Notes: a model not told the origin generated them from the sequence alone. A stretch of 64,000 bases of DNA from Patescibacteria group bacterium (GCA_018826905.1 JAHJYC010000004.1:207988-271987), one strand, 5' to 3'; counted from the stretch's first letter, positions 574 through 34,813 are shown. Numbers and translations are program-made.

Positions 574-586
574 ATAACAAAGAGCA

Positions 587-4146: not shown

Positions 4147-4881
4147 ATGGAACTTTCTGTTGACCTTCTCAATCTGCAGTCTGGTATTGGCGTTACTCGT
4201 GGATACCGGCAGTACGCTACACGCGGCATGCGCTATATCATTCCTCACTCAAGCAAGCCCCTCGTGCATGCAGGGACATTCTTAAATGGTTCCCATTGCG
4301 ATATTGCCCTCCTCACTGAAGTAGATGGCGGCTCCCGTAGGTCAAAGTATATTTCTCAGCTAGATACCCTTAAAGAGAGCACTTCTTTTACTGATGGCTA
4401 TTTCTTTCCAACAAGAAGTTTAGGGAATTCAATAAACGAGGGGAACGGCATACTAAGTCTCTACCCATTAGAACGGAACCGCACTCACCCTCTTCCGAGT
4501 GCCACAAATCCAAGAGTGCTTGGCGAGAGCCGTATAACAATCAAGGGAATTCCTATAACACTATTTGTTGCACATCTTGCTCTTCGTACAGAAACTCGCT
4601 CACTACAGATAAAAAGAATTGGTGAAATACTTTCAAGTACATCTACACCAATCCTGCTTGGTGGAGACTTTAACGAGCGAGACGCTAAGAAATTCCGCTT
4701 ACTCACCAATATCGGTCTTTCATTCATTACCGCCCCCGGCTATCCTTCCTGGAAGCCAATTCATTCGCTGCAGGTTTTGTTCTACAGCTCACACTTTGAA
4801 GCGCATAACGCTTTTACGAATAAAGATACTCTCTTTTCAGATCACCTCCCCTTACATATAGACCTCACGTTTACTGCGTAG
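4147..4881 (+). CDS. Endonuclease/exonuclease/phosphatase (EEP) family protein
   Basis: C-terminal SDHLPL motif and GGDFN motif typical of the EEP fold. The start is taken at the internal ATG (MELSVDLLNL). Confidence 0.65.
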   Translation: MELSVDLLNLQSGIGVTRGYRQYATRGMRYIIPHSSKPLVHAGTFLNGSHCDIALLTEVDGGSRRSKYISQLDTLKESTSFTDGYFFPTRSLGNSINEGNGILSLYPLERNRTHPLPSATNPRVLGESRITIKGIPITLFVAHLALRTETRSLQIKRIGEILSSTSTPILLGGDFNERDAKKFRLLTNIGLSFITAPGYPSWKPIHSLQVLFYSSHFEAHNAFTNKDTLFSDHLPLHIDLTFTA

Positions 4882-7781: not shown

Positions 7782-7809
7782 ACGACTATCATAACAAACG
7801 ATTCTGACC

Positions 7810-8142
7810 CTATGTAACCGTGCTCAGGATGGCGGTAATACGCTTTATTGTTACAAAGCCATACCCCCATAGTACAGGGAGCCAAAGCGGCATCACCCCA
7901 AATAGAGTCTGGCGCTCAAAGGTTTCCACTCCTGTGCTCACAAACAAGTACTCCGCAATAGTCATGCCGATGAGTCCAACGACAAAAGCAAGAAAATCGT
8001 GCTTGCCTGCAATAAGGAGTCCCGCAGCACTTATAAAGAAGAAGATCGCCGTTAAGAGGTAATCATTCAATACCAGTGGAATGAGCCCTATCATGAGGAG
8101 CACAGGGAGCGTGTGCAGGAAAATCTTTAGCGTTGTTTTCAT
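7810..8142 (-). CDS. Small multi-pass membrane protein (hypothetical)
   Basis: Three to four hydrophobic helices. The start is set at the internal ATG (MKTTLKIF) to avoid a long overlap with the upstream gene. Confidence 0.4.
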   Translation of the reverse strand: MKTTLKIFLHTLPVLLMIGLIPLVLNDYLLTAIFFFISAAGLLIAGKHDFLAFVVGLIGMTIAEYLFVSTGVETFERQTLFGVMPLWLPVLWGYGFVTIKRITAILSTVT

Positions 8143-8149
8143 AACAAAA

Positions 8150-9049
8150 CTATACCAAAGGAGGAAGAAGAGACTGTATAAGTTTCTTGTATAGAGACAC
8201 GATCTCCTCTTCCCCATTGTCTCGTATGTAAATACCAAATCCTGGCTGACTATTAATTTCCACAAGATACATCTCTCCCTTCGTGTTGAGGATAACGTCC
8301 AGTCCTGCAAACTCAACGCCAACCACCTGTTGGAGAGGCTGTATGAATTTGGTGAGTGCTTGTATGAGCACAGGATCGTTCACGTGATGCGCCACTGCAT
8401 TTTCATAATGCAGTGGGCTTAGGTTGCCAGAGAAGGTTGCTCCAGAAAAGTCTTTCTCGTACACAAGTACTATTTCCCCTTTGAAAACTACAACCCTAAA
8501 CTCCTGCGCTCTTTCTACATATTCTTGTGCAAGAGCTATGTAGTCATAGTGCTGAGAAGTATGATTGAATATTTCCTTTATTGAAGAAAGCACCTCTTCT
8601 GAAGTGTGCGCGAGAAACACATTCGCGCCTTGTCTTCCCGAATTCATTTTTACAATAACCGGGAGCGAAAACTCTGAGAGGATTCTTTCTGCAATCTCTT
8701 CGTACGATTTCTCCTTGATGTAGCATTTGTTTTCTTCAGCCTTTGGAAATGGATCAAAGAAACTATGTGTTCGTGGAGTTTGAATAACTTCTCCGACAAG
8801 CTTTGCGGTGAACTCCTTATCCTTGCAAATTCTGTGTATGGAATCAGAATTGAAAGGCGTTGAGTAGTTAGCAAAATATATCTTTTTCTGTGTGTCTATA
8901 GAAATAAGATTTCCATACAAATCATGAACGGTATAGAGTACTGCCAATTCTTCAGCAGCACGGCGTACACAGCGCATGTTTGGTATGGTGCCTCCCTTTA
9001 AAGCTGGCTGAGGTGGTTGCATATATGCAGGTAGCAGAAGTATACCCAA
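8150..9049 (-). CDS. ATP-grasp family protein (RimK/YheC-YheD-like)
   Basis: VIVKMNSGRQGANVF and LVEINSQPGFGIY motifs characteristic of ATP-grasp ligases. The exact start codon is uncertain (Met at residue 1, 10 or 25). Confidence 0.5.
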   Translation of the reverse strand: MGILLLPAYMQPPQPALKGGTIPNMRCVRRAAEELAVLYTVHDLYGNLISIDTQKKIYFANYSTPFNSDSIHRICKDKEFTAKLVGEVIQTPRTHSFFDPFPKAEENKCYIKEKSYEEIAERILSEFSLPVIVKMNSGRQGANVFLAHTSEEVLSSIKEIFNHTSQHYDYIALAQEYVERAQEFRVVVFKGEIVLVYEKDFSGATFSGNLSPLHYENAVAHHVNDPVLIQALTKFIQPLQQVVGVEFAGLDVILNTKGEMYLVEINSQPGFGIYIRDNGEEEIVSLYKKLIQSLLPPLV

Positions 9050-9087
9050 CTTTGGGATTCAAACACAAAACTACCGTACCTGCAGGA

Positions 9088-9693
9088 CTATGAACTTTGC
9101 AGAATAACCGAACAAGCAAAAGTGAAATCTGTTGGTGCTTCAGTACCCTCGTACAATGGTGCCTGTATGAGGAGGGTAATCTCTTCGTTATTTGTTAGTG
9201 CCTGCTCAATGGCTGATCTTGCTCTTTCTGAAATTGCTGCAGAGCTTTCAAGTGTTCCATCAGTTAGAATCCCCAGTTTGTACAGCAAGCGATTTTCTTC
9301 TACACGATTCACCGTGTTCCCTCTCTCTACTCGTTCACTATTATAGGAACTAAAGGAGGACGGAGATGAGGACGCTACTTGTAGATATACTGCCGTGACC
9401 CTTTCTCCTAGGATTGTAGTGTCTCGCGAGACAATTTGTCCTTCAACCATGGCAGTGCCAGCCCCTCTAGAATCAGTGACGCGAAATGGTTCATTGATTA
9501 CCCGAAGCACATCAGGCTCTGTCGTACTGCAGGTAGCCTGGTTAGAGAGAAAGGAACGCTCCGTATCCTGTACTGAAGTATCTTCGGGCTGGCGCTGATT
9601 AGATCCATTGGGAGAAGCGGGGTTGAGTATCAGGAACACAACGAGACCAACAATAAGCACTACAGCAAGAAGCATAGGGATAGTATGTTTCAT
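9088..9693 (-). CDS. Hypothetical membrane-anchored protein
   Basis: N-terminal transmembrane segment (MLLAVVLIVGLVVFLIL); no recognised domain. Confidence 0.4.
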   Translation of the reverse strand: MKHTIPMLLAVVLIVGLVVFLILNPASPNGSNQRQPEDTSVQDTERSFLSNQATCSTTEPDVLRVINEPFRVTDSRGAGTAMVEGQIVSRDTTILGERVTAVYLQVASSSPSSFSSYNSERVERGNTVNRVEENRLLYKLGILTDGTLESSAAISERARSAIEQALTNNEEITLLIQAPLYEGTEAPTDFTFACSVILQSS

Positions 9694-9770
9694 ATACTGA
9701 TACAACAGGAAAGCAACTGAAAATTTAATTAATATTCAAGCTTTTACTCTTTCTGAGTATCTATCACAAA

Positions 9771-9799
9771 CAAAAACCGCCTGCGTAGGCGGTTTTTGT
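9771..9799. terminator. Bidirectional intrinsic terminator
   Basis: AAAAACCGCCT-gcgt-AGGCGGTTTTT: a perfect hairpin flanked by an A-run and a T-run. Confidence 0.7.
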
Positions 9800-9813
9800 A
9801 ACAGATGAAGGAG

Positions 9814-10353
9814 TTAGATTGTTAACTGATAGGTTTCTACATTACTTGCACCTGCGTCTTTGAAAATGGTTACTGCCTCATCTTCCTTGTCGGTGTGTGC
9901 TGCAACAAGGACATCACCTGCCTCAACACGGTCTACATATCGCTGAGCGTGTTCTTCAGAAATACCGAGTCGGACGAGACCAGCGAGTATACCGCCTGCC
10001 GCTGCTCCGGTGACTCCACCAGCCGCAGCAGCTCCTACAGCTCCAGTGAAGCCAAGTGCCGCTGCGATTGGGCCCGCTGCAAACAGTGGACCAATAACAG
10101 GAATAATCCCTGCGAAAGCTGCGAGACCCGCAAGGGCACCTACTGTTCCACCAACGGCCGCGCCTTTTCCGGCGCTTTCAGTAACTGTGCTACGAGCAAT
10201 GTCGTCTGCGTCTTCTTCTTTTATCTCCCCTTCAGTATTCCGATACACGTAGGATATGTCATCTGCAGGAACCTTGAGATCGTTATGAAGTTGATTAATG
10301 GCCTTCTCCGCATCTTCACGATTTACAAATGCACCAATGGTAAATGTTTTCAT
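9814..10353 (-). CDS. General-stress-protein-like (DUF1269 N-terminal domain with a glycine-zipper membrane segment)
   Basis: Gly/Ala-rich glycine-zipper segment (GAAVGGTVGALAGLAAFAGIIPVIGPLFAAGPIAAALGF) flanked by YflT-like soluble parts. Confidence 0.5.
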   Translation of the reverse strand: MKTFTIGAFVNREDAEKAINQLHNDLKVPADDISYVYRNTEGEIKEEDADDIARSTVTESAGKGAAVGGTVGALAGLAAFAGIIPVIGPLFAAGPIAAALGFTGAVGAAAAGGVTGAAAGGILAGLVRLGISEEHAQRYVDRVEAGDVLVAAHTDKEDEAVTIFKDAGASNVETYQLTI

Positions 10354-10490
10354 GTCTGTAAGTAGTTACTTACTAATAGACGCAGTGTACGCAAGAAACG
10401 ATGAACACCTCATTAAATGCATCGTACTTCTCGCTATCGTAAAAGCACACACTTCCTTCACCCTATATTTTTTAGCATTACTTCAACTAT

Positions 10491-21842: not shown

Positions 21843-23498
21843 CTAGTTCCTTAGATACACTTCGTACTTAGTTGTGTGGCTACTTGTTGTTGCTGGAATG
21901 CGTGCTGGGTACCCTCCAGACACCCAATTCACATAAAACTTAGCGTACCCTGCTGCAGTGTCGTACAACCAGAATTTCTCCTGTCCTAGATCTCGTGACC
22001 AATCTCCTGCAAGATCCGGTCCCCCAGAAGGAAGCGTGAGTCGTATCGCATACGGGTGTTCCGTACTGTACATGATTCCAGTGTCTGCTTTTTGATTCAG
22101 GTTATACACCCCTCCTGTGTAGTTAAGAGTATACGGAGTACTGGTACCAATCTGCGCGCGATTGAATCCACTTCCATCCAATGCCCCCGTTGAAGGGAGT
22201 AGGCTCGGATAAAAGTTATACAGTTCATATCCTGGAAGGAAGTGGTGCTCATGTGAAATGTCCATCCCATCTTTTGTGAACACATGTGAGAGCGTTGAGG
22301 AGCCAACTACAATTGAGTTGTTCTTTGGAAGCAAGGTCTCCAAAGACTGCGCAATGGTAAATGTATCTCCGGTTCTATATTCTCCAACCGGAATGTTTGC
22401 CACATCAACTCCGTCTAGCGTAAATGATGCTGAGAGTGGATTCTCATCCCCATGAGCACTTCCATAGTCTCCCCAATTAGCTGCCCCAGCTGGATCCCCC
22501 GCCACCCCAAGGAACCCTGCATATTCCCAAACTGATGCAGTGTTTGCGAGCATGCGTGGCACGGTAACACCAGTGAAATCAAGAATTCTGAGACCCTGAA
22601 TGTTCCATACTCCCTTCGCTACTTTCCTAAACGTATATTCTGCATATGTTGCTTCTTCAGCATCAGGGACTTGTACGCGCGCAAGATATTCTGACTGTCC
22701 ACTACGCACGAGCATAACTGGGTTAAGTGTCGCAGTTACATCATTCTTATCAAGAAGGATTTGAGCAGGGGTCCTGATGTAATCGTAAATTTTAACTTCA
22801 TCTATACCTCCCTGGAAAAACTGTGCTCCCGCTGCAGAGTGCCAGTTCCCAAATGTGAGATTAGAAAGCGCATCGCTGACGTAGGTACCTGAACCAGGAA
22901 TCTGCAAGCCATAGGACACCTCCGTACCATTCACATATATCTTTGCCGTCTTATCTGTGGCGCTCCACGTAACAGTGAGATGACTCCATGTGTTTGGAGA
23001 AATAGTATTTGGAGCAGCGATATATGTTGCACGGGTTCCAGAATGATACACGTCTAAGCGTGGATTACAGGATCCTCCGCTTCCATACAAATAAAACCCT
23101 ACCGGTCCTCCGTTACTCTTACCCGCAAGATGACGCACTGAGTTACAAGACGTTGGGTTTATCCACGCAGATATTGTTACGTCGTGTACAAACAAATCGT
23201 TTATAGCTGATGGCCTCCCAAAATTTATTGCGTCATTAATTCCATCAAATAGAAGTGCCTTTCCTTTTGCACCAGTACTCATCCACCCACTTGTTGCTGT
23301 TGCTGGGTCTGCGATGTTCGTGAGTACTCCAGGAACAGAAGTCATTGCACTGTTTGAAACTGTTGTGCCGGCACCCTCTTCAAACTTCCAGAAGCCAACA
23401 GGAGCTCCTGATGCTTGAACGGAACCCATAACTGAAAATAAAAGAACTCCTACGAAAGATGCACGGAGTATAAATGAAAACATAGGTGAAATATTCAT
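21843..23498 (-). CDS. Secreted concanavalin-A-like lectin/glucanase (LamG-like) domain protein
   Basis: Signal peptide; LamG signature (ALLFDGINDAINFG...VTISAWINP...IYVNGTEV). Confidence 0.6.
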   Translation of the reverse strand: MNISPMFSFILRASFVGVLLFSVMGSVQASGAPVGFWKFEEGAGTTVSNSAMTSVPGVLTNIADPATATSGWMSTGAKGKALLFDGINDAINFGRPSAINDLFVHDVTISAWINPTSCNSVRHLAGKSNGGPVGFYLYGSGGSCNPRLDVYHSGTRATYIAAPNTISPNTWSHLTVTWSATDKTAKIYVNGTEVSYGLQIPGSGTYVSDALSNLTFGNWHSAAGAQFFQGGIDEVKIYDYIRTPAQILLDKNDVTATLNPVMLVRSGQSEYLARVQVPDAEEATYAEYTFRKVAKGVWNIQGLRILDFTGVTVPRMLANTASVWEYAGFLGVAGDPAGAANWGDYGSAHGDENPLSASFTLDGVDVANIPVGEYRTGDTFTIAQSLETLLPKNNSIVVGSSTLSHVFTKDGMDISHEHHFLPGYELYNFYPSLLPSTGALDGSGFNRAQIGTSTPYTLNYTGGVYNLNQKADTGIMYSTEHPYAIRLTLPSGGPDLAGDWSRDLGQEKFWLYDTAAGYAKFYVNWVSGGYPARIPATTSSHTTKYEVYLRN

Positions 23499-23625
23499 TA
23501 GACTAATGCTGCTCAGGTAGAGTGTAGCAGATGCTCTAAAAGGAACTTTCAGACGAGGGTTTGCGGTTAAACGTAGCGTACTAGCAGGATTTCTTTTAAT
23601 CTCTGACAGACTGATTACCTGTCCA

Positions 23626-23656
23626 CAGAAAACGGCACCGTGTGGTGCCGTTTTCT
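23626..23656. terminator. Intrinsic terminator downstream of nirK
   Basis: AAAACGGCACC-gtgt-GGTGCCGTTTT. Confidence 0.6.
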
Positions 23657-23737
23657 AAACTAGTTGATAGGGCCGGATTGGTTGCCCAATTCTCAAAACA
23701 GATTGAATTGTTTGTTTCTGAACACCGCGCACCGCTA

Positions 23738-24958
23738 TTAGTGCCCGTACCCTTCTATGATAGCTCCGTCATATATCTCCTTATTCTCTTCACCAGATAC
23801 CTGCAACACTCCCCACGCACCCCGGTCTACCCGCGCTAACGCATGGTCAACGAAGATGTAGTTTCCTGGGACTTGAGTGTCGAATTCGACAACAGTCGCT
23901 CCGCCTGCCGGAACGAGTGTTGTTTGGACATTGGTGTGAGGCTCGGATGTGAGTGAGGCTTCAGGGAAGACTCGATCAAACACTTCGCCAATCAGGTGAA
24001 ACGAGGAGATGAGATTTACACCTCCGTTGCCCATGTAGATACGCGCAGTCTCTCCTGTTTTCATCTGCATCTTGTCCATGAGACCGTTCGTCTTCCCGTT
24101 AAAGACGATGTAGGTCGGCTGACCCGCGAGCATCGCCTCTGCATCAAAGAGTTGGATACCCTTGCGGCCCATGCCGCCTGAGGCATAGAACTCGCCCTGC
24201 ATAACGTAATATTCATGATCCACTGCCGGCAGACCCTCCTCAGGCTCGACGAGAATGAGACCGTACATGCCATGGGTCATATGGTTCGCGACGTTCGGAG
24301 TGGCGCAGTGATAGACGAAGAGACCGGGATGAAGTGCCTTGAACGTCACGGTTGCGGACTCTCCCGGAGCGACCATGGTAGAGACTGCGCCACCACCAGG
24401 ACCAGTGACGGCATGCAGGTCGATGTTGTGATAATGCAGACTTGTCGGATCGTTATGTAGTGTCAGCTCCACCGTATCCCCTTCCCGCACCCGAATCATT
24501 GGTCCGGGTATCTGTCCATCGAAGGTCCAATAGTTTATGAATACTCCCGGTGCCATTTCGGCTATAACTTCTTTCGTTGTGAGTTCCACCTTCACGAGCT
24601 CAGGTTCTGTGCGCGTAACAGGCACCGGCACGTCGTTTGGATCGCGAGCAATGTTCGCAACGCGTTCAAACTTGTCAAAGTTCCCGAAGAACTTAAGGAC
24701 GCTTCCGAGAGACAGTACCGGCCCCTCGGCAGGACCATAGGTCTTGAGGAAGAATGGATATTCGAATCCACGCGGCAGTCCATGTGGCGCATAGAAGAAT
24801 ATCGACACACCGAGGAATACAGCAACGAGTGTAACAGTAAGCCATGTCGAGTGAAGCTTTCGCAGCACGAGGTATAGAAAGACTCCTGCGAAGATGAACG
24901 CTATGAAGAGACCGAACCATTCGACGAGTACTGTGCGGAGCAGATAAATAATTTCCAT
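23738..24958 (-). CDS. nirK: Copper-containing nitrite reductase NirK, with an N-terminal transmembrane anchor
   Basis: Type-1 and type-2 copper ligand motifs (LHYHNIDLHAVTGPGGGA and FVYHCATPNVANHMTHGMYGLILVEP); two cupredoxin domains; an N-terminal hydrophobic helix of about 50 aa. Confidence 0.85.
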   Translation of the reverse strand: MEIIYLLRTVLVEWFGLFIAFIFAGVFLYLVLRKLHSTWLTVTLVAVFLGVSIFFYAPHGLPRGFEYPFFLKTYGPAEGPVLSLGSVLKFFGNFDKFERVANIARDPNDVPVPVTRTEPELVKVELTTKEVIAEMAPGVFINYWTFDGQIPGPMIRVREGDTVELTLHNDPTSLHYHNIDLHAVTGPGGGAVSTMVAPGESATVTFKALHPGLFVYHCATPNVANHMTHGMYGLILVEPEEGLPAVDHEYYVMQGEFYASGGMGRKGIQLFDAEAMLAGQPTYIVFNGKTNGLMDKMQMKTGETARIYMGNGGVNLISSFHLIGEVFDRVFPEASLTSEPHTNVQTTLVPAGGATVVEFDTQVPGNYIFVDHALARVDRGAWGVLQVSGEENKEIYDGAIIEGYGH

Positions 24959-24967
24959 GAGAAAGGA

Positions 24968-25312
24968 TTAGTAGGGTATCTTGCACTCATCAAAGCAGTG
25001 CGCATCGCGATTCAGGCTATAGATGCGTTCACGACCTGAATCAATACTTGCAACTGCATCGACTGAACGTAATACGTTCAGGTGATGGGTAATGGTTGGC
25101 TGTTGTAGCTCGAGCTCTGCGGTCAGCTCAGTAACGGTCATTCCCTCCTTGGCCTTTCCAAGAAGGCAGACGAGCTGATACCGACTACGGCTCCCTACCA
25201 CCTTGAAGCAATCGGGGCAAAGCTCCTCTTCAGCACTATCTACCCACGACGGACGCTTGTACGTGCGCTCCGCAGCTACTTTCTTAGTTGTCCCCACCTT
25301 TTTCTTATTCAT
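24968..25312 (-). CDS. ArsR/SmtB-family transcriptional regulator
   Basis: Winged helix-turn-helix (MTVTELTAELELQQPTITHHLNVLRSVDAV); Cys pairs (CPDC, CFDEC) suggest metal sensing. Confidence 0.8.
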   Translation of the reverse strand: MNKKKVGTTKKVAAERTYKRPSWVDSAEEELCPDCFKVVGSRSRYQLVCLLGKAKEGMTVTELTAELELQQPTITHHLNVLRSVDAVASIDSGRERIYSLNRDAHCFDECKIPY

Positions 25313-25377
25313 AGACAGTCATCTATTGATACACTAATAAACCCATAGACACTTATCAATATATCATCATCTTCGCT

Positions 25378-27663
25378 ATGCCACGAACAGAATCCCCAGT
25401 TATAGAATCAGTCATTAAGAGAGACGGAACGATTGTCTCGTTCGAGCGAACGAAGATAGAGAACGCAATCGCAAAAGCGCTCGAGGCAACCGGCGAAGGA
25501 TCGCGTGAGCAATCCAAAGTCATCGCAGAATCGGTTGTAAACTCACTGAGCAACACGCTACGAGCAGACGCTCGGACAATTCCCTCGGTGGAAGAGGTGC
25601 AGGACAGCGTTGAGACCGAACTCATGAAGGCAGGGTTCGGCGCGACTGCCAAGGCATACATTTTGTATCGCGTGCACCACGCCAAGTTGCGGGAAGCTTC
25701 CTCTGAGGTGTCCCCTTCCATACGAGCCATAGTCGCTGAAAGCAAGAAGTATTTTTCCAATCAACTTTCTGAGTTCGTCTATTACAGCACGTACTCCCGC
25801 TGGCTCGATGATGCGGGACGCCGTGAGGCATGGGTTGAGACGGTTAACCGCTATGTAGCATTCATGCGCGAGAATCTAGGAGACACGCTCCTAGAAAACG
25901 AGTACGCAGAGATACGCGAGAACATGCTAGCAATGAAAGCAATGGGCTCAATGCGTCTCCTATGGAGCGCAGGAGCACCTGCACGCGCATCGAACGTCTG
26001 CGTGTACAATTGCTCGTTCATCGCACCAGCCACTTGGCAGGATTTTGCTGAGATTATGTATATATCCATGTGCGGCACCGGCGTCGGCTTCTCTGTCGAA
26101 CGTCAGACCGTTAAGATGTTGCCACGTATTGAACCGCAGACAGGAGAAATACTTGCTGAATATATAATAGAAGATTGCAAAGAAGGCTGGGCGGATGCAC
26201 TTGCCCATGGACTCACTGCCTGGTCTTCTGGAAAGGACGTTTCGTTCAACTACGAATATATCCGACCGCGCGGCGCAAGACTGCGTACTATGGGAGGGCG
26301 GGCGTCGGGCCCTGAGCCGCTCAGGAACCTGCTCGACTTCGCTCGCGAGCGCATGCTCGAGCGCCAGGGTCGACACCTCTCGACGCTCGACGTACATGAC
26401 CTTGTCTGCAAGATAGGCGAGATTGTCGTTGCGGGTGGAGTGCGAAGAAGTGCCTTGATTTCCCTCTCCGATCTCGACGATATGGAGATGCGCGAGGCAA
26501 AGAACGGCCAGTTCTATGTTACCCAGCCGCAACGTGCCATGGCGAACAATTCCGCCGTCTATAACGAGAAGCCAAGCGCGATTGCGTTCATGGAGGAGTG
26601 GCTGAACCTCGCACGAAGCGGGTCTGGAGAACGCGGCATTTTTAATCGCGGAAGTCTCAAGGGGCAGCTGCCCGAGCGTCGGTGGCCTCTTTTTGAGAAA
26701 GATGCTGCGCAAAGCGGCACCAATCCATGCGGCGAGATAATTTTGAAATCAAAACAGTTCTGCAATCTAAGCGAGGTCGTCGTGCGCCCAGAGGACACGC
26801 TAGAAACTCTAAAAGAGAAAGTGCGTATTGCGACCATACTTGGAACCTACCAAGCATCTTTGACCTCTTTCCCCTATCTCTCACCTGAGTGGAAGAAGAA
26901 CTGCGAGGAAGAGGCTCTGCTGGGAGTTTCCATGACCGGCCAGTGGGATAACCTCGCTGTACGCGATTCTGCTGCACAGAGTGCTCTTAAGGAAGTCGCG
27001 CTCGAAACTAACAGAATCTATGCCAAGCGGTTCGGCATCAATCCGTCCACTGCAATAACCGCTGTAAAACCGTCAGGGAACGGTTCGCAGCTCTTTGATT
27101 GTGCATCAGGCATGCATCCACGACATGCAAAATATTATCTGCGTCGTGTCCGGATAGAAGGACACAATCCGCTCAAGCGGCTTCTTGAGGACGCTGGGGT
27201 TCCCTGCGTGCCGGAAGTTGGGCAGACGAAAGATACTGCAACAACCTGGGTGCTTGAGTTCCCGATTAAAGCTCCAGAAGACGCCGCTGTGAAGGGTGAC
27301 CACACAGCACTCGACCAGCTCGAGTACTGGAAGATGGTGAAGGAGAACTATTGCGAGCACAATCCGTCGGTTACGGTAACGATCGCTGACGACGAGTGGC
27401 TCGCGGTCGGCAATTGGGTATACGCGCACTGGGATATTGTTGGCGGTCTCTCATTCCTTCCGAAAAGCGAACACGTGTACCAGCTCGCTCCCTATGAGGA
27501 AATCAGCAAGGAACGGTATCTTGAGCTTGCATCCACATTCCCTGACATAGACTTCGCACGGTTAGTCCAGTACGAAACGAGCGATACGACCACCGGAGCG
27601 AAGGAACTCGCTTGCGTATCGGGAACATGCGAGGTTGACGTGCTTACTGCACCCACATCATAA
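25378..27663 (+). CDS. nrdJ: Adenosylcobalamin-dependent ribonucleotide reductase (class II, NrdJ/RTPR-like) with an N-terminal ATP-cone
   Basis: ATP-cone (VIKRDGTIVSFERTKIENAIAKA); class II thiyl-radical loop (NPCGEIILKS); C-terminal Cys pair (ACVSGTC) as in the L. leichmannii RTPR tail. Confidence 0.85.
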   Translation: MPRTESPVIESVIKRDGTIVSFERTKIENAIAKALEATGEGSREQSKVIAESVVNSLSNTLRADARTIPSVEEVQDSVETELMKAGFGATAKAYILYRVHHAKLREASSEVSPSIRAIVAESKKYFSNQLSEFVYYSTYSRWLDDAGRREAWVETVNRYVAFMRENLGDTLLENEYAEIRENMLAMKAMGSMRLLWSAGAPARASNVCVYNCSFIAPATWQDFAEIMYISMCGTGVGFSVERQTVKMLPRIEPQTGEILAEYIIEDCKEGWADALAHGLTAWSSGKDVSFNYEYIRPRGARLRTMGGRASGPEPLRNLLDFARERMLERQGRHLSTLDVHDLVCKIGEIVVAGGVRRSALISLSDLDDMEMREAKNGQFYVTQPQRAMANNSAVYNEKPSAIAFMEEWLNLARSGSGERGIFNRGSLKGQLPERRWPLFEKDAAQSGTNPCGEIILKSKQFCNLSEVVVRPEDTLETLKEKVRIATILGTYQASLTSFPYLSPEWKKNCEEEALLGVSMTGQWDNLAVRDSAAQSALKEVALETNRIYAKRFGINPSTAITAVKPSGNGSQLFDCASGMHPRHAKYYLRRVRIEGHNPLKRLLEDAGVPCVPEVGQTKDTATTWVLEFPIKAPEDAAVKGDHTALDQLEYWKMVKENYCEHNPSVTVTIADDEWLAVGNWVYAHWDIVGGLSFLPKSEHVYQLAPYEEISKERYLELASTFPDIDFARLVQYETSDTTTGAKELACVSGTCEVDVLTAPTS

Positions 27664-27668
27664 GCACC

Positions 27669-28214
27669 ATGAAAAATCCTTCCCTGTCGCTCACCACTCA
27701 GATCCTGCTCTTGCTCGTGCTCCTCATGATCGGCATCGGTTCTCGGTTCCTGCCGCATCCGCCATCAGCCACGGCACTGACTGCCGTCATGTTTGCCAGT
27801 GCCCTGTACCTACGACCCCACCTAACCATTGCGCTTACTTTGTTGCTTCTGTTGTGGTCAGACATGACACTGGGGAGCTACGAACTACCAGTGATGGCTT
27901 CGGTATATGGATCGTTCCTGATAATCGCAGGCTTCGGGATGTGGTTCGCGCGCACGAAGAACATCGGTGGACGAGTACTCATGCTCGCGAGCTCTTCGGT
28001 CCTGTTCTTTCTCATAACAAATGCAGCTATCTGGTATTTCACCCCTTGGTACGCAAAGGACATAAGCGGACTCATGCTGTCCTACTCGCTCGGCCTCCCG
28101 TTCTTGAAGAACATGCTCCTTGCTGACTTCCTCTACACGCCGGCTTTGATCGCCGCACTTGCGCTCGTCTTTAGTTCGAGTCCAGCACCTAAAACTTCCT
28201 TGTATGTATCGTAA
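27669..28214 (+). CDS. Small multi-pass membrane protein (possible ECF-type S-component or vitamin-uptake protein)
   Basis: 181 aa with five or six transmembrane helices; it starts 5 nt after nrdJ and overlaps the next gene. The function is inferred from genomic context only. Confidence 0.35.
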   Translation: MKNPSLSLTTQILLLLVLLMIGIGSRFLPHPPSATALTAVMFASALYLRPHLTIALTLLLLLWSDMTLGSYELPVMASVYGSFLIIAGFGMWFARTKNIGGRVLMLASSSVLFFLITNAAIWYFTPWYAKDISGLMLSYSLGLPFLKNMLLADFLYTPALIAALALVFSSSPAPKTSLYVS

Positions 28215-28644
28215 ATGGACACTCATTGTTGCGGGCATACTTGCTATTGCATCCACTGCACTCATACTCTTTTCTTCTTATGAGCGAGCAGTTGAGTTGT
28301 CGCCATCTCAAGACGTATCGGAAGAAGTCTCTAATGAAATACCGCTGCGTCAGGAATCAGTAGCTGAAGAGGTTGCTCCAGCGATACCCGCTCGCACACA
28401 TGTTCTTATTGCGGATACGGCTGGCACCGTGGAGTCCTCAATGCAGAAAGAGTATGAAAGAGGGTCGCTCGTGTATACGAGCACTTCATATCCGACACTC
28501 GGATCATTCTTGGAGTCTATTAATGGACTGAAGAACGAGAATGGTTTCTATTGGATGCTCTACATAAACGGATCATCCGCTTCTGTTGGAATGTCCCAAG
28601 CGTATGTGGTACCTGGCGATCTAATCGAATGGCGCTATGAATAA
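28204..28644 (+). CDS. Membrane-anchored DUF4430-like (transcobalamin beta-domain-like) protein
   Basis: N-terminal transmembrane segment; C-terminal YWMLYINGSSASVGMSQAYVVPGDLIEWRYE pattern reminiscent of DUF4430. The ATG at 28204 is chosen. Confidence 0.45.
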   Translation: MYRKWTLIVAGILAIASTALILFSSYERAVELSPSQDVSEEVSNEIPLRQESVAEEVAPAIPARTHVLIADTAGTVESSMQKEYERGSLVYTSTSYPTLGSFLESINGLKNENGFYWMLYINGSSASVGMSQAYVVPGDLIEWRYE

Positions 28645-30622
28645 GTACCTTCTTCTGGCCCTATTTCTGGTTCTTGCACTCGCAAGTCCACAAAGCGTCC
28701 GCGCTGACGAGACAGCTTCGACTACGCCCGAAGTCCTTGCAACAACGACCCCTATCGTTGAGCTGCCCGAACCCGTAACTGAGCCAGTAATTGCTACTAC
28801 GACTGGTGTGGTAGCAACATCTACAGAATTCGTAACAGCCAGTACGACCGATGCAGTAGCAATATCGACTGAGCCTACCCCGACCGCACTGCCTTCAGTA
28901 GATATCGCGCTCACGGTCGCAACCGGGGAGCACATTCTCTTTGCGGATTCTATTACCGTAACCGCCTGCGCGCCCCGTCCTGATATGGAGCCTGCTGTCA
29001 GCGGATACTGTGCACTTGAGCAATCTGGCGCTCCTATGGCGTGGACATGGTATGGAAACGACGCTTTTGTCGATTCAATTAGTGGAGTCGGGAACGACTA
29101 TGAGGGCAATGCATACTGGAATTGGTTCTCGGATCTCTCTTATGGCATGACCTCTCTCAATGCACATACACTACATGCAGGCGAGTCCCTAATCGTCAGC
29201 ATCGGGCGCTTTCCTCTACGCCTCCAGACCACCTCCGATTCAGAACAGGCAGGGAACGAGATCATTATTACGGTAGAGCAGTTTAGTTTTGACAGTACCT
29301 ACAGTCCTATATGGGAGCCTGCAGCAAGCAGTACGATAGTCATACATGACACTCTCTACGAAACTACAGGAGACGGTACGTTGTCTTATAATCTTCCTGC
29401 CTCAGACTCAATAGAAATCCACGCGCGCAAGGAAGGCTACCTTGATGCAACTCCCCTGACCGTACGTATCACTGAGGCACCAGAATCCGACACAGGCAGC
29501 AGCTCAAATCCTGGCCCGGTCCCAAAGCCAGCCGATGCTGTTGCTGCTGCAGCGAGCTTCCTTCTTGAGTACCAACATGCAGATGGGTCGTTTGGAACTT
29601 CCCTTTTGTCTGACTGGGCTGCACTCGCATTCAAGAGTGCGAACATGTCTACTAGAACATTGAAAGAATATCTTGAAGGCGGACCAGGCTCTCTCAAAAC
29701 AGCTACTGACTTCGAGCGACGAGCCATGGCACTCTCCGCACTCAGAATCAATCCCGTTCAGAAAGTCAGCGAAGTTCTGAATCGGTTTGATGGCACACAG
29801 ATCGGAGATCCGTCTCTTTGGAATGACGACATCTTCGGACTTATTGCGCTTCGGGCTGGCGGATACGATGAGTCTGACATAGTGATTAGAAGTGTTGCCG
29901 CATCGCTTATCGCCGTCCAGAAAAGCGACGGTTCGTGGGGAGGCGTCGATCTTACTGCTGCCTCTATACAAGCACTTGTGCCTATCTCTTCGCTTCCTAG
30001 CGCCGAGTCTGCACTTGCAAAAGCACGAGAATATCTCGTATCCCGCCAGCAACCGGATGGGTGTTTCGGGAATAGCTTCGCGACAAGCTGGAGCATCATG
30101 GCAATTGAAGCAATTGGGGAGTCTCCAAATACATGGACCATGACTGGTGGCGCGACACCGCTATCCTGTCTCCGTGCGCTTCAGTCTCCTGACGGAGGAT
30201 TTGAGGCAGGAGCGAGCGAAGACACAAGGATTTGGGCGACTGCTTACGCCCTACCAGCACTTACAGGCAAGACGTGGGATTCCTTGCTTATTCGTTATCC
30301 AAAGGCGCAGAGTATAGACACGCCTCCCATTAATAATTCACATGCAACATCGACCGATGAGGTGCTGCCGCCAGAAGACACGACACTTCCTATAGCCGTC
30401 CCCACACCAATCGAACTGCCCATAATTTCCGAAATCGTTTCAGAACCTTTTATCGCAAAAATAGAGGAGGCTTCACCAATACTCACAAACCGCAGACTTG
30501 CTGCATCTGCAGGATCTGCCTTGGCAGATACCGGACTTCCTGCTGAACAGCGTTCCAACGACTCGGGTCTATGGGTATCGATTATGCGTTTCTTAATGTC
30601 GTTGTTTGGGTTCCTCTTTTAA
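28637..30622 (+). CDS. Large surface protein: signal peptide, a DUF4430-like region, prenyltransferase-type alpha/alpha-toroid repeats, and a C-terminal hydrophobic anchor
   Basis: Repeated Q..DGSFG / SDGSWGG / QPDGCFG / SPDGGFE motifs of the prenyltransferase/terpene-cyclase repeat fold; overlaps the previous gene by 8 nt. Confidence 0.55.
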   Translation: MNKYLLLALFLVLALASPQSVRADETASTTPEVLATTTPIVELPEPVTEPVIATTTGVVATSTEFVTASTTDAVAISTEPTPTALPSVDIALTVATGEHILFADSITVTACAPRPDMEPAVSGYCALEQSGAPMAWTWYGNDAFVDSISGVGNDYEGNAYWNWFSDLSYGMTSLNAHTLHAGESLIVSIGRFPLRLQTTSDSEQAGNEIIITVEQFSFDSTYSPIWEPAASSTIVIHDTLYETTGDGTLSYNLPASDSIEIHARKEGYLDATPLTVRITEAPESDTGSSSNPGPVPKPADAVAAAASFLLEYQHADGSFGTSLLSDWAALAFKSANMSTRTLKEYLEGGPGSLKTATDFERRAMALSALRINPVQKVSEVLNRFDGTQIGDPSLWNDDIFGLIALRAGGYDESDIVIRSVAASLIAVQKSDGSWGGVDLTAASIQALVPISSLPSAESALAKAREYLVSRQQPDGCFGNSFATSWSIMAIEAIGESPNTWTMTGGATPLSCLRALQSPDGGFEAGASEDTRIWATAYALPALTGKTWDSLLIRYPKAQSIDTPPINNSHATSTDEVLPPEDTTLPIAVPTPIELPIISEIVSEPFIAKIEEASPILTNRRLAASAGSALADTGLPAEQRSNDSGLWVSIMRFLMSLFGFLF

Positions 30623-31231: not shown

Positions 31232-32239
31232 TTATATATTAAATAACGGACTGATGATGCCAAGGCCGGCAAGGCCCGCGAGAAGCGCAAATAGTCCAAG
31301 ACCTATCACCACCACTCCTGCCGACTTAAAGAACAGTGGTGCATATTTCGAGTGAGCAAATGATGCAGAGCCAAAAGAGAGCAACAAGAGCATCGGAAGT
31401 GTTCCAAGAGCAAACGCAAACATGATAAGCATTCCTGACACAAAGGATCCACTACTCAGAGCAGATACCTGCATTGACTGCGTAAAACCACAAGGCAAGA
31501 AAAACGTCGCAAAACCTAGAATGAGCGGAGTAAGGGTTTTGTGTTCGATCCTTCTAAAGAAATTGAATAAGTTTGAAGGTAAGGAAACTTTATTCTTTGC
31601 AAATACTCCAACCAGATTCAGACCAAGCAACAACATTACAACGGAAGCCAGAATGCCCAGTAGTGCGGTAAGCGTGAAATTTATACCAATTGCCCCACCA
31701 ATCGCACCAAGGACACCACCTAATATAGCAAAGCTCACTATTCTTCCAGTGTGAAAGAGAGTAAAAGTTTTTGTATCGCTCACATTATCCTGCGATATCT
31801 TTGCGGAAAGCGACAACACCAATCCTCCCACGATTGCAAGGCAACTCGAGACCGATGCAATAAGGCCTATGATGAAGCTTGTGATAGGGGTTGTCTGTCC
31901 GCCAAGACCGAGATTGAGGACTCCGGACTTCTGCAATAGAAAGAACAGCACAAGGAGACCAAGTCCGATCGGAAGCGCCTTCCAGATAACATCACTTTCA
32001 TGCTTTACCTTTGCTGATTTCTCTGCAGACAAAGTGTAGCCATTCGACTGAATCTTACTTGTCAGAACTCTTGCAAGCTCTTCCGGATTCTCTTCATTAT
32101 AGGTCTCGACTTCTACCATTTCCCTTTTTAGATCGGCGCGTGCGCTCCGTACTATGTCCTGTTCGTCTAAAATGTCCTCGATAAGGATTTTACAGGACGT
32201 GCAGTGGGTACCAGAAACATGGAATGTGTACGTATTCAT
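31232..32239 (-). CDS. Heavy-metal-associated (HMA) domain fused to a DsbD_2/TauE-like transmembrane domain
   Basis: N-terminal HMA motif (GTHCTSC); membrane domain with conserved Cys (SSCLAIVGG, FLPCGFT). Confidence 0.65.
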   Translation of the reverse strand: MNTYTFHVSGTHCTSCKILIEDILDEQDIVRSARADLKREMVEVETYNEENPEELARVLTSKIQSNGYTLSAEKSAKVKHESDVIWKALPIGLGLLVLFFLLQKSGVLNLGLGGQTTPITSFIIGLIASVSSCLAIVGGLVLSLSAKISQDNVSDTKTFTLFHTGRIVSFAILGGVLGAIGGAIGINFTLTALLGILASVVMLLLGLNLVGVFAKNKVSLPSNLFNFFRRIEHKTLTPLILGFATFFLPCGFTQSMQVSALSSGSFVSGMLIMFAFALGTLPMLLLLSFGSASFAHSKYAPLFFKSAGVVVIGLGLFALLAGLAGLGIISPLFNI

Positions 32240-32241: not shown

Positions 32242-34536
32242 TTACAATTTCTTAGCTTTAATGCGGAGCGAGTTAGATACCACAGAGACCGACGACATCG
32301 CCATAGCAAAGCCCGCAAAGACAGGATTTAAGAGCCAGCCAAAGATTGGATAGAAGACACCTGCCGCAAGTGGAATACCGACAATATTGTAGATGAATGC
32401 CCAGAAAAGATTTTGCTTGATTCCTCGCATGGTGATTTTTGAAAGCTTGATGGCCTTCACGAGCTTTGAAATATCGCCACCGAGCAATGTGATGCCTGCT
32501 GATTCGATAGCCACATCCGTACCTGTTCCCATGGCAATACCCACATCGGCTTGGGCAAGTGCGGGAGCGTCATTCACCCCATCACCCGCCATAGCAACAA
32601 TGCGACCTTGTGATTGAAGCTCTTTTATTTTTTCAAGCTTATCCTGCGGCAACACGTGGGCAATCACATCATCGATACCGACGAGAGAAGCCATATATTT
32701 TGCAGCCTTCTCATCGTCACCAGTAAGCATCACGACTTTGATACCAAGTTTGTGAAGATCGGCAACGGCCTGTTTTGATTCTTCTTTTATTTCGTCAGCC
32801 ACCATAACAAAGCCGAGTACACTGTCTTTTGTTGTGAGAATAACTGGGGTTTTTCCCTGAGAGGTAAATTCGTTTAACTTGGTCACATCAAACGGAATTT
32901 CAAGATCGCTGACAAGTTTTGCGTTACCGACAAAATATTCAGTGCCCTTAACCGTTCCCTTGAGACCCTTGCCCTGTATTCCCTCAAAGCCAGAAACATC
33001 AGATGGGGAGATATTTTTCTCTTGTGCATAGCTTACTATTGCGTGTGCAATTGGGTGTTCAGACTTCTTTTCAAGCGATGCAAGTATCGAGACGAGCTCC
33101 TCATCAGAGAGTGTTGAAAGATTTTGTATATCAACAAGAGTTGGCTTTCCTTTGGTAATCGTTCCCGTCTTATCAACCACAACCGTGTTTACCTTATGTA
33201 GCTTTTCGAGAGTAGCCGCATCTTTGATGAGAATTCCTTCCTTAGCACCCTTCCCGACACCCACGATGATTGCAGTCGGTGTCGCAAGCCCAAGGGCACA
33301 AGGACAAGCTATTACAAGAATTCCCACAAATGAGACAAGGCCAAAAGATAGTGCCTGAGAGAATCCTAGGTACTGCGACCCGACGATAAGCCATGTTCCC
33401 AGTGTAAGGAAAGCAATTACAAGCACGATTGGTACAAAGACTGCTGATATCTTGTCTGCCAATGCCTGTATCGGGGCCTTGCTTCCTTGTGCCTCCTCCA
33501 CCATTTTTATGATCTGAGCCAAGAGTGTTTCCGACCCGACCTTCGTCGCCTTAAATGTGAATGAGCCGCTAGTATTTATGGTGCCAGATACAACAGCATC
33601 TCCTTCTTTTTTCTGTGCTGGCATCGGTTCTCCTGTAACCATTGACTCGTCAATGAACGATTCCCCTTCAGTGATAACGCCATCTACAGGAATCTTTGCA
33701 CCTGGTTTTACAATAATAGAGTCGCCATACTTAACATCGTTTACGGAAATCTCAACTTCTTTACCATCTCTAACAACGAGAGCTGTTTTTGCTTGAAGGT
33801 TGAGAAGCTTCTCAATGGCATCACCAGTCTTAATCTTTGATTTTGCCTCAAGATACTTGCCAAGAGCGATAAAAGTAATGACAACAATCGTCACATCGTA
33901 GTACTGGTAGTCGACGTTTATGAATGGACGCAGAACATCCTCAAAGGCACTGACAGCAAAACTGTACAGAAAAGCAGCAACTGTACCGATACCGATAAGC
34001 GTATCCATGTTTGCCTTGCCGTATCTAAGAAACCTATAAAAGCCGAGTAGGTACGGCTTACCAACTACGAAAAGGATATATGTTGCAAATATCGGAAGAA
34101 GATGATGAAAGAACTCCTTGAGCGTATAACTCATTGCAGAGACAACTCCATACTCGGAGAGAATGTCCCAGCCCATAACGAAAGCAGCAAATAGTGCGAG
34201 CGGAATAGCCGAAAGTACCTTCATTCGCATATCGGCAACTTCTACAAGCTTCTCTTTTTTGGACTGATTCAATCCAAGATGAGCCTCGTGTTCGCCGGCA
34301 GACATACCCATTTCTTCAGCAGAAGGAGAGACTTCCAGAGTGTACCCGAGTGGCTCAATGTGTCTAGAAAGATCGTGCGGATTCGTCTTTGAAGGATCAA
34401 AAGAAACCTTCGCTTTTTCTGTTCCGTAGTTCACTTCGGCAGCATGTACACCCTCAACTTTCTTAAAAGTCTTTTCGATAACCGACGAACATGACGCACA
34501 GTGCATTCCTTTTACTTTATAAGTTTGTGTATGCAT
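32242..34536 (-). CDS. copA: Copper-translocating P1B-type ATPase
   Basis: N-terminal HMA (GMHCASC); CPC transmembrane motif (ACPCALGLATP); DKTGTIT phosphorylation site; GDGVNDAPAL hinge. Confidence 0.95.
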   Translation of the reverse strand: MHTQTYKVKGMHCASCSSVIEKTFKKVEGVHAAEVNYGTEKAKVSFDPSKTNPHDLSRHIEPLGYTLEVSPSAEEMGMSAGEHEAHLGLNQSKKEKLVEVADMRMKVLSAIPLALFAAFVMGWDILSEYGVVSAMSYTLKEFFHHLLPIFATYILFVVGKPYLLGFYRFLRYGKANMDTLIGIGTVAAFLYSFAVSAFEDVLRPFINVDYQYYDVTIVVITFIALGKYLEAKSKIKTGDAIEKLLNLQAKTALVVRDGKEVEISVNDVKYGDSIIVKPGAKIPVDGVITEGESFIDESMVTGEPMPAQKKEGDAVVSGTINTSGSFTFKATKVGSETLLAQIIKMVEEAQGSKAPIQALADKISAVFVPIVLVIAFLTLGTWLIVGSQYLGFSQALSFGLVSFVGILVIACPCALGLATPTAIIVGVGKGAKEGILIKDAATLEKLHKVNTVVVDKTGTITKGKPTLVDIQNLSTLSDEELVSILASLEKKSEHPIAHAIVSYAQEKNISPSDVSGFEGIQGKGLKGTVKGTEYFVGNAKLVSDLEIPFDVTKLNEFTSQGKTPVILTTKDSVLGFVMVADEIKEESKQAVADLHKLGIKVVMLTGDDEKAAKYMASLVGIDDVIAHVLPQDKLEKIKELQSQGRIVAMAGDGVNDAPALAQADVGIAMGTGTDVAIESAGITLLGGDISKLVKAIKLSKITMRGIKQNLFWAFIYNIVGIPLAAGVFYPIFGWLLNPVFAGFAMAMSSVSVVSNSLRIKAKKL

Positions 34537-34537: not shown

Positions 34538-34813
34538 TTATTTCCTCTTTAGCTTATAAACTTTCAAAATCTCTTCCTTGGCTTTTTCGGTCTGTCCAGA
34601 CTTTACCTGGTTCATGATGCATCCCCCAAGGTGGTTCTCAAGTAATAAATCTTCAACATTGGAAAGCCCCTGCTTAACTGCAGATGTTTGAGTAATTACG
34701 TCTATGCAGTACGTATTGTTCTCGATCATCTTTTGTAAGCCACGAACCTGACCCTCGATGAGCTTAAGTCGACGGATGATCTTAGACTTGTTTTTGTCTT
34801 CTAAATATTTCAT
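34538..34813 (-). CDS. csoR: CsoR/RcnR-family copper-sensing repressor
   Basis: DUF156 fold with the C-H-C ligand pattern (YCIDV...HLGGC). The ATG at 34813 is chosen because the upstream extension would read through the operator palindrome. Confidence 0.8.
   Translation of the reverse strand: MKYLEDKNKSKIIRRLKLIEGQVRGLQKMIENNTYCIDVITQTSAVKQGLSNVEDLLLENHLGGCIMNQVKSGQTEKAKEEILKVYKLKRK

Follow-up and report, generated by a model that had tools for sequence, protein, structure and literature searches.

We analysed a stretch of 64,000 nucleotides from a Patescibacteria group bacterium (GCA_018826905.1, JAHJYC010000004.1:207988-271987; hereafter the window), which carries a gene for a copper nitrite reductase, nirK, directly preceded by a gene for a small ArsR-type winged-helix protein. 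The two genes would form an operon divergent from nrdJ, the gene of a B12-dependent ribonucleotide reductase (RNR), out of a 65-bp control region in which we found two palindromic candidate operators, O1 and O2. On balance, we consider it rather probable that this locus encodes a nitrite reductase anchored by a membrane hairpin and governed by a Cys-based repressor, responsive to oxidants or nitric oxide (NO), acting on O1 and O2. Very little is known of regulation in Patescibacteria, and the value of the locus lies in its wiring rather than in the enzyme.

The arsR-like gene and nirK lie on the same strand, separated by 9 nt between the open reading frames (ORFs), thus we presume that they are co-transcribed. 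The initial annotation had described an ArsR-type, Cys-rich regulator adjoining nirK upstream and divergent from it. The regulator is indeed there and its product scores above the NF033788 cut-off, while its orientation had to be corrected: it is co-directional with nirK, and the divergent neighbour is nrdJ (Table 1).

The regulator is a protein of 114 amino acids. NF033788, labelled 'metalloregulator', was the only NCBIfam model to pass (58.2 bits, cut-off 55), with no specific ArsR subfamily model above its cut-off; HTH_5 (36.2 bits, cut-off 22) and HTH_20 also matched. The BigR model NF040642 reached 30.4 bits against a cut-off of 155, and neither Pfam nor NCBIfam gave an Rrf2 match, so the protein is not a member of the NsrR group. 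Its homologues fall into 611 clusters, and those with a named source all come from Patescibacteria lineages. In an exhaustive HMMER search, seven clusters (at 50% identity) were retrieved at E<=1e-30 and 40 at E<=1e-10, followed by generic ArsR proteins. The protein belongs to a tight, Patescibacteria-specific ArsR/SmtB subfamily and is probably a repressor.

Its five cysteines (C32, C35, C49, C106 and C110), together with H105, are invariant in the 32 homologues of alignment A2, with the pattern ELCPDCFKVVG...LVC...AHCFxxCxIP. In the AlphaFold2 (AF2) model (predicted local distance difference test, pLDDT, 82) the chain folds into alpha1-alpha4 and a beta wing, with CPDC in alpha1 and C49 in helix 2. 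Alpha5 is absent as a long helix: 14 residues follow the wing, with a helix of four residues at 105-108. In alignment with CzrA, H105 falls on His86, where the alpha5 regulatory site has its first His; from there the regulator has nine residues left and CzrA 20. Alpha3 and alpha4 are free of Cys, and the alpha5 DxH motif has no conserved Asp, position 103 being variable in A2. Among the described ArsR sensory sites, alpha3 CxC, alpha3N, alpha4C, alpha5 and alpha5C were not matched. Foldseek against the PDB returned generic ArsR/SmtB structures alone (TM ~0.55-0.6, HlyU and BigR among the nearest folds), and profile searches of PDB sequences likewise gave generic ArsR/SmtB matches, with no solved structure of the subfamily.

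The nearest outliers (85-99 aa) keep a CxxC at the start of alpha1 and a C-terminal CxxxC or CxxC, and have lost C49 and mostly H105. Thus, the four cysteines (Cys4) appear to be the core feature, and C49 and H105 additions of the CPR (Candidate Phyla Radiation) subfamily. The genomic contexts of two of the distant Cys4 relatives (P0260 and P0247) were uninformative.

The regulator shares with the ArsR/SmtB metalloregulators (CzrA, SmtB, CadC, ArsR) the winged helix, a QPTxTHHL recognition helix, a palindrome at its own promoter and, by position, autoregulation. It differs from them in having CPDC and HCxxxC and in lacking the long alpha5, the alpha3 CVC, the alpha3N site and the alpha5 DxH...HxxE. 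The thiol-switch regulators BigR, SqrR and HlyU (persulfide/ROS sensors) and RexT use a Cys pair in alpha2 and alpha5, whereas the window's regulator has five cysteines and a different operator and regulon; C49 appears to occupy the same place as the Cys with which BigR and HlyU sense in alpha2.

Then, we compared the sequences upstream of the regulator gene across 83 distinct loci. They follow the consensus TATATTGATA-N4-TCTAT-N10/11-ATAGAT-N4-ATCTATG, the last ATG being the start codon, which resolves into two 6-4-6 palindromes: O1 (ATTGATn4RTCTAT) and O2 (ATAGATn4ATCTAT). Each was found in 76/83 upstream regions and both in 73/83, with at most one mismatch for O2. O2 ends in the arsR ATG in 70 regions, and the last half-site of the window's O2 likewise runs into the start codon (TCTATG). 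In the window, 17 nt separate O1 from the nrdJ start codon. O1 and O2 are spaced by 26-27 nt in 55 regions and by 34 nt, the class of the window, in five. At the sequence level, the regulator gene is therefore preceded by a palindromic operator overlapping its own putative promoter, as in ArsR/SmtB systems. No Shine-Dalgarno sequence was found before arsR and the operator abuts its ATG; thus, the arsR transcript is probably leaderless or nearly so, and the same probably holds for the nrdJ transcript.

The operator was present at 10/10 regulator starts in the genome loci, with one chance match among 70 nirK loci without the regulator. In ~0.5 Mb of metagenome loci, 107 operator sites lay at arsR starts and four elsewhere, three of the latter being perfect (~0.03 expected by chance). 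Two of these three stand directly before a TATAAT box and a sequence resembling an adenosylcobalamin (AdoCbl) riboswitch, on loci L124 and L115. The L124 element matched RF01482 with 47.1 bits (E=1.7e-7; gathering score 50), and the gene behind it (2..1526, minus strand) joins DUF4430 and an alpha/alpha-toroid domain in one protein. The sequence upstream is the same in L115, which gave no Rfam match at the gathering threshold. The third perfect site, on L096, falls between a gene for a protein related to cytochrome cd1 (cd1-like, see below) and the region upstream of it, taken as nrdJ. Within the window, further operator copies amounted to chance-level matches with two mismatches, none of them near the copper genes, and Rfam at the gathering threshold returned tRNAs across the window and no riboswitch. 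As side observations, the operator and riboswitch-like upstream sequence of L115 lie at about 700..1100 (minus strand), and on L096 the control region is apparently duplicated on both sides of the cd1-like gene.

We evaluated which genes accompany the regulator in 80 metagenome loci, retrieved by a scan seeded on the regulator and so blind to its neighbours. The gene directly downstream encoded a hairpin-bearing NirK in 37/80 loci and a DoxX-like protein in 5/80. In one locus each it encoded an alternative oxidase (AOX), cytochrome bd subunit I and a membrane-anchored protein joining cytochrome b5 to Cytochrom_D1 (NirS-like). Other or unknown genes followed in 22/80, no co-directional gene in 7/80, and 6/80 had too little sequence. 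On the other side, 59 of the 70 loci with enough sequence had a divergent nrdJ whose start was at most 250 nt from that of arsR, mostly at a start-to-start distance of 51-68 nt (mode 58-59, where the nrdJ start could be placed). In species-representative genomes, the regulator lay directly upstream of nirK in seven loci and within 4 kb in three more, and these loci are spread over the two main subclades of the CPR NirK tree. Individual homologue look-ups added NirK in Levybacteria and Paceibacteria and, on another contig of Paceibacterota, AOX beside an oxidase operon of cyo type. In L091-L093 (Paceibacterota, 5372..10354) the regulator homologue precedes AOX (PF01786), whose gene adjoins a cyo-type quinol oxidase operon (COX1-4 and UbiA), which points to aerobic respiratory modules in some Patescibacteria. 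The cd1-like protein (~700 aa) has several N-terminal transmembrane helices, a cytochrome b5-like domain and a NirS-type beta-propeller (Cytochrom_D1, E=2e-67); its gene stands directly behind the regulator in L107 (about 4400..6500), L039 (about 5220..7320) and L096 (1809..3893). Such an architecture is unusual, and it occurs here in CPR contigs.

The window's nrdJ product carries the Pfam domains ATP-cone, RNR_Alpha and RNR-II_ins_dom, and scored 264.9 bits on TIGR02505, below the cut-off of 340. The DUF6580, DUF4430 and 661-aa genes behind it are likely to form a B12-capture cluster; their layout is reminiscent of transcobalamin (alpha/alpha toroid plus beta domain). Since nrdJ is constant and the gene behind the regulator varies, the module looks like an ancestral unit of nrdJ (with B12 capture) and the divergent regulator, with nirK or another terminal oxidase or reductase recruited behind the regulator.

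Taken together, the regulator would bind O1, by the nrdJ start, and O2, over its own start codon, repressing both divergent promoters; it would thereby control itself, nirK and probably nrdJ. The CPDC pair, the HCxxxC at the position of the truncated alpha5 and C49 could sense an oxidant, namely O2, reactive oxygen species (ROS) or NO, as an Fe-S site, a Zn-thiolate site or a dithiol switch, and the modified Cys cluster would release DNA. The targets depend on copper (NirK), haem (cd1-like, bd), di-iron (AOX) and cobalamin (NrdJ), and are all terminal electron-accepting or oxidant-related, which favours a redox or NO signal over a metal-specific one. Coherently, a homologous nirK on an Anaerolineales contig is flanked by CRP/FNR and Rrf2 regulators. 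Elsewhere, nirK/aniA, aox and hmp are controlled by NO or O2 sensors, and nirK/aniA and aox are classical targets of sensors of NO. Of all the steps proposed here, the signal is the most conjectural, and for O2, ROS or NO acting through a Cys-based switch we see the chances as roughly balanced.

The initial annotation, by setting the regulator among copper genes, implied a copper logic, and a sensor of Cu(I) or another thiophilic metal tying NirK synthesis to copper would fit several facts: ArsR/SmtB proteins are classically metal sensors, the sole model above cut-off is a 'metalloregulator' one, the protein is rich in Cys and has in H105 a counterpart of a CzrA alpha5 ligand, NirK needs copper, and copper-handling genes lie in the window. 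However, homologues 62-86% identical, with the same cysteines and operator, precede AOX, bd, cytochrome b5-cd1 or DoxX genes, and the most constant partner is the cobalamin enzyme NrdJ (59/70 loci). Moreover, a dedicated Cu(I) sensor, CsoR, is already encoded beside copA, and the window's copper genes have no operator copy nearby. Given the mixed cofactors of the targets and the separate CsoR-CopA circuit, a copper or metal-specific signal is unlikely, and we regard the copper-sensor explanation as quite improbable.

Some points weigh against the oxidant/NO reading too. The signal is deduced from gene neighbourhood, and the four conserved cysteines could be a structural Zn site, with the effector elsewhere or absent. 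NirK makes NO, so a nirK induced by NO would be in positive feedback if no partner organism took the NO away. The closest link is with nrdJ and the B12 genes, not with nirK, which leaves room for a DNA-precursor or cobalamin signal. A scan of 23400..25500 with a simple sigma-70 consensus found no promoter. Lastly, as cupredoxin electron donors for NirK, both candidates in the window were rejected, since they lack the canonical His-Cys-His-Met set.

In a reading built on the structural Zn, Cys4 could bind a structural Zn that replaces alpha5, the protein being a constitutive or growth-linked autoregulator of nrdJ and B12 uptake, similar to NrdR, with nirK hitch-hiking. This would explain why nrdJ is the most constant partner, why perfect operators precede an AdoCbl-riboswitch-like sequence and a putative B12-binding DUF4430 gene (L124, with the same upstream sequence in L115), and why in 7/80 loci no co-directional gene follows arsR. 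The CxxC knuckle with its helix and the CxxxC on a short helix (AF2 secondary structure) resemble treble-clef Zn sites. Yet the downstream genes are strongly enriched in terminal oxidases and reductases and are not random, and the invariance of C49 and H105 in the CPR subfamily, as opposed to distant Cys4 relatives, suggests an added sensory feature. In addition, the riboswitch-like element at the same promoter would already sense B12, which makes an input of another kind likely for the regulator. We consider this explanation unlikely. Sensing of B12 by the regulator itself is also unlikely, as an AdoCbl riboswitch-like element already stands behind the same operator in L124. With NrdR, the Zn-ribbon and ATP-cone repressor of RNR genes, the regulator shares four conserved cysteines and the probable repression of an RNR gene from promoter-overlapping sites; the folds are unrelated (Zn-ribbon/ATP-cone versus winged helix), the regulator has no nucleotide-sensing domain, and its operator is another one.

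A narrower version of the oxidant/NO reading, contained within it, is that NirK, instead of being regulated as a stress or detoxification enzyme, is a respiratory terminal reductase in a short electron-transport branch and the regulator an anaerobic or microaerobic switch, like FNR or ANR-DNR. In Pseudomonas aeruginosa, Anr and Dnr jointly control nrdJ and denitrification genes, and in our loci the regulator also precedes the bd and AOX quinol oxidases, in L091 by a cyo-type operon. An NDH or Nqo-like complex feeding NirK through a cupredoxin has been proposed by Danczak et al. (PMC5581439). On the other hand, we found in the 64-kb window neither a quinone-linked complex nor a cytochrome or a canonical blue-copper carrier, and, according to the same authors, many nirK-bearing CPR lack proton-translocating machinery. 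This version seems unlikely to us.

Among known sensors, NsrR (Rrf2, [4Fe-4S]), DNR/NnrR (CRP/FNR) and ArnR overlap with the regulator in their targets: nirK/aniA, the cd1-type gene, the alternative oxidase and the bd oxidase. The analogy with NsrR and DNR is one of role, since the regulator has no sequence or fold kinship to Rrf2 or CRP, and nrdJ is not a classical NsrR target. Two proteins provide precedents for winged-helix sensors based on Cys or Fe-S. ArnR responds to NO through a Cys-ligated [4Fe-4S] cluster (PMC12343034). In SurR, as in the regulator, a CxxC opens a helix of the DNA-binding domain; once it is oxidised, SurR no longer binds DNA and the terminal flow of electrons is redirected (PMC7289023). 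Searches of the open-access literature for ArsR together with nirK and CPR, or with nrdJ, gave nothing relevant, which is weak evidence of absence; as far as the searchable literature shows, the module of regulator, operator and nrdJ/nirK appears to be an undescribed ArsR/SmtB variant.

We tentatively propose, as a possibility that we regard as less likely than not, a Patescibacteria-wide class of redox/NO sensors with ArsR fold, in which a Cys4(+Cys/His) Fe-S or Zn-thiolate centre replaces alpha5 and one operator co-ordinates nrdJ, B12 capture and the terminal oxidase or reductase of each lineage (NirK, cd1-type, AOX, bd). If so, the regulator would be the CPR counterpart of NsrR/FNR/DNR, and its regulon among the first inferable for these uncultured symbionts. 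One small repressor, a 16-bp palindrome found across hundreds of contigs and definable targets (nrdJ, B12 capture, NirK, AOX, bd, cd1-like) make the system readily testable. A signal such as O2 or NO would reveal when the symbionts switch on nitrite reduction, and would link DNA-precursor supply to exposure to oxidants or NO, since cobalamin and RNR radicals are open to attack by NO chemistry.

Regarding the enzyme, its identity as an unambiguous NirK with copper-ligand motifs was upheld. The 406-aa protein scored 352.5 bits on the equivalog model TIGR02376 (copper-containing nitrite reductase, EC 1.7.2.1; cut-off 296.3), and Pfam placed Cu-oxidase_3 and Cu-oxidase_2 on it, i.e., two cupredoxin domains. 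The catalytic two-cupredoxin core (residues ~99/100-406) aligns end to end with solved NirK cores, with ~55% identity across residues 99-406. The closest solved structures are all NirKs: 6the_A (E=2.8e-101), then the enzymes of Ralstonia pickettii, Neisseria (AniA) and Hyphomicrobium. The type 1 copper (T1) ligands H177/C218/H226/M231, aligned to those of 6the/6qpt, the type 2 (T2) His triad H182/H217/H372, the catalytic D180 (HNIDLH) and H321, and the gating I323 (SSFHLIG) are invariant in 26 family members (alignment A1). Both motifs quoted in the initial annotation, HYHNIDLHAVTG and FVYHCATPNVANHMTHGM, are found in the translation. A multicopper oxidase lacking the T2 triad had been named as the alternative to check; it is ruled out by the TIGR02376 score, by best matches that are NirKs with the full triad and by the intact copper ligands. 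All this indicates that the predicted product is a complete, bona fide copper nitrite reductase (NO2- + e- + 2H+ -> NO + H2O). By its nearest structures and by the SSFH motif around the catalytic His, which we take to be a marker of the AniA-like clade, the predicted protein belongs with that clade. The C-terminus (23752..23738 read on the minus strand) ends in a G-[HG]-G-H tail, also present in 6the, whose H406 is invariant in the 26 homologues.

The likeness to AniA-type NirKs (class II / clade II; Neisseria AniA 1kbv, the R. pickettii NiR core 3ziy, 6the) covers the core identity, the HCx7Hx4M spacing and SSFH. In Neisseria, AniA is a lipoprotein; in the other close relatives of known structure, a donor domain, either cytochrome c or cupredoxin, is fused to the enzyme. 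The window's NirK has instead an N-terminal transmembrane hairpin and a 40-aa linker, without a fused donor. The N-terminal membrane anchor reported by the initial annotation thus stands, although not as a single helix: a basic RK(L)H loop (RKLHS in the window) connects two hydrophobic helices (~14-32 and ~39-57), and the whole family retains this hairpin. When 80 NirK homologues from species-representative genomes were scanned for hydropathy, we found two, occasionally three, hydrophobic segments in 36/38 CPR-type NirKs with an intact 5' end, against none or one in conventional NirKs. The AF2 monomer model has low confidence (pLDDT 59.6), and was used solely for its two predicted helices, 2-34 and 38-59. 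Residues 1-99 have no Pfam match and are conserved family-wide in A1, and the Pro/Gly-rich linker at 58-99 has invariant P58, G60, P62, P68, G75, G79, P80 and E98. By the positive-inside rule, the hairpin would be N-out/C-out, so that the enzyme would face outwards from the cytoplasmic membrane. The N-terminus has neither a Tat motif nor a lipobox; lacking the former, NirK probably enters the membrane unfolded and receives its copper outside the cell.

The assignment to a CPR-like lineage was confirmed as Patescibacteria. NirK clusters with named sources bear the name 'copper-containing nitrite reductase [Patescibacteria group / Candidatus Paceibacterota]', and the window's type IV pilus cluster, peptidoglycan-binding surface proteins and few central-metabolism genes fit a small genome of this kind. 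Proteins 67-93% identical, all of ~406 aa and of the same architecture, make up more than 120 clusters (at 90% identity). In a neighbour-joining (NJ) tree of the catalytic core, the hairpin-bearing NirKs form one clade, with the window's NirK inside, three NirKs labelled Anaerolineae nested in it and one Woesearchaeota sequence at its base. NirKs of CPR type also occur in metagenome-assembled genomes (MAGs) labelled Anaerolineae, Gammaproteobacteria and, in one case, Woesearchaeota; the presence of the hairpin NirK in Anaerolineae and Woesearchaeota MAGs (L011, L014, L016, L038) suggests lateral transfer or mis-binning. In L011 (Anaerolineales MAG JAXIPJ010000229.1, 6989..9729), DUF1858 and CRP/FNR genes lie upstream of nirK and Rrf2 downstream, in place of the ArsR-type gene.

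The initial annotation held that stand-alone nirK genes in CPR had been reported only sporadically, which does not agree with the literature. CPR nirK has been documented since 2017: Danczak et al. 2017 (Microbiome 5:112, PMC5581439) describe a large, separate CPR/Parcubacteria clade of stand-alone nirK with conserved copper ligands, and nirK in CPR is also described by He et al. 2021. Nitrite detoxification or partial denitrification, the roles suggested by the initial annotation, may apply here, and both are already discussed by Danczak et al. The window's gene shares with this clade family, lineage, stand-alone occurrence and T1 and T2 ligands; it is an ordinary member, and the enzyme itself adds little new. 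The paper of Danczak et al., searched for transmembrane, signal peptide and regulator, has nothing on these for NirK, and in these terms mentions neither the two-helix hairpin nor the conserved linker.

A contamination or chimeric join from a conventional denitrifier could be suspected from the GC content, which is slightly higher at 24001..30000 (0.51-0.54, covering nirK-arsR-nrdJ and the B12 cluster) than in the rest of the window (~0.47), and from the CPR-type NirKs in MAGs labelled as other phyla. The former could reflect the composition of conserved genes or an older acquisition. However, the identical NirK with the same flanks is found in the MAG GCA_018826595.1 (on a 376-kb contig), in a second NCBI MAG and in two independent Logan assemblies, the arrangement of nrdJ divergent from arsR-nirK recurs on dozens of related Patescibacteria contigs, including a complete chromosome of 721 kb (L019), and NirK falls inside the CPR clade of the tree. 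The check for a chimeric contig was thus negative: recurrent synteny and independent assemblies effectively refute it, and we regard such an origin as extremely improbable.

The copper theme of the window is real, comprising csoR, copA, an HMA+DsbD_2 gene, a weak Cupredoxin_1 protein and a plastocyanin-family protein. The operon of csoR, copA, the HMA/DsbD_2 gene and the Cys/Met protein may supply the copper of NirK. Its last member, the 132-aa weak Cupredoxin_1 protein, is membrane-anchored, with C82...C120-S-M-G-M and no His ligands, and could handle Cu(I), perhaps as an extracytoplasmic Cu(I) chaperone for NirK metallation. The 159-aa plastocyanin-family protein has His and Lys at the positions of the T1 Cys and Met (FEYHNHVGASKGG) and an HPTH motif upstream; possibly it holds a non-canonical, all-His copper site, and it would not be an obvious electron donor. 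A 126-aa membrane protein without Pfam match is encoded behind it. Danczak et al. assume a cupredoxin donor, whereas the window's two cupredoxin-like proteins have no canonical blue-copper ligands. That NirK has a membrane hairpin, and that no blue-copper donor could be recognised in the window, sharpens the question of how the enzyme is supplied with electrons in organisms lacking a respiratory chain. As had been stated, nar, nor and nos genes are missing from the window: none appeared in the Pfam annotation of the large ORFs (at least 110 aa, plus csoR), ten of the scanned ORFs having no match.

Table 1. Coordinates of the nirK locus and of other features in the window, counted from its first nucleotide.
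Feature	Position	Strand	Basis or remark
nirK, 406 aa	23738..24958	-	TIGR02376, Pfam, PDB alignments
nirK, N-terminal helical hairpin (residues ~14-57)	24788..24919	-	hydropathy and alignment A1
nirK, linker (residues 58-99)	24662..24787	-	invariant columns in alignment A1
arsR-like gene, winged-helix protein, 114 aa	24968..25312	-	NF033788, HTH_5, HTH_20
candidate operator O2, ATAGATgactGTCTAT (minus-strand reading)	25311..25326	.	6-4-6 palindrome
candidate operator O1, ATTGATaagtGTCTAT (minus-strand reading)	25345..25360	.	6-4-6 palindrome within the near-invariant TATATTGATA box
divergent control region between arsR-nirK and nrdJ, 65 nt	25313..25377	.	sequence
nrdJ, class II (adenosylcobalamin-dependent) ribonucleotide reductase with ATP-cone	25378..27663	+	Pfam, TIGR02505
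DUF6580 membrane protein, DUF4430 protein, 661-aa protein (weak squalene-cyclase-like repeats)	27669..30622	+	downstream of nrdJ
weak Cupredoxin_1 protein, 132 aa	30824..31222	-	Pfam
HMA+DsbD_2 gene	31232..32239	-	Pfam
copA	32242..34536	-	Pfam
csoR	34538..34813	-	Pfam
plastocyanin-family protein, 159 aa, membrane-anchored	57075..57554	+	PF00127, 22.3 bits (cut-off 21.2)
tRNA-Ile, anticodon UAU	62115..62189	+	ARAGORN; Rfam tRNA, 67.1 bits

Finally, the tRNA-Ile(UAU) listed in Table 1 provides an uncommon reading of AUA and can replace the tRNA-Ile(CAU)/TilS route.

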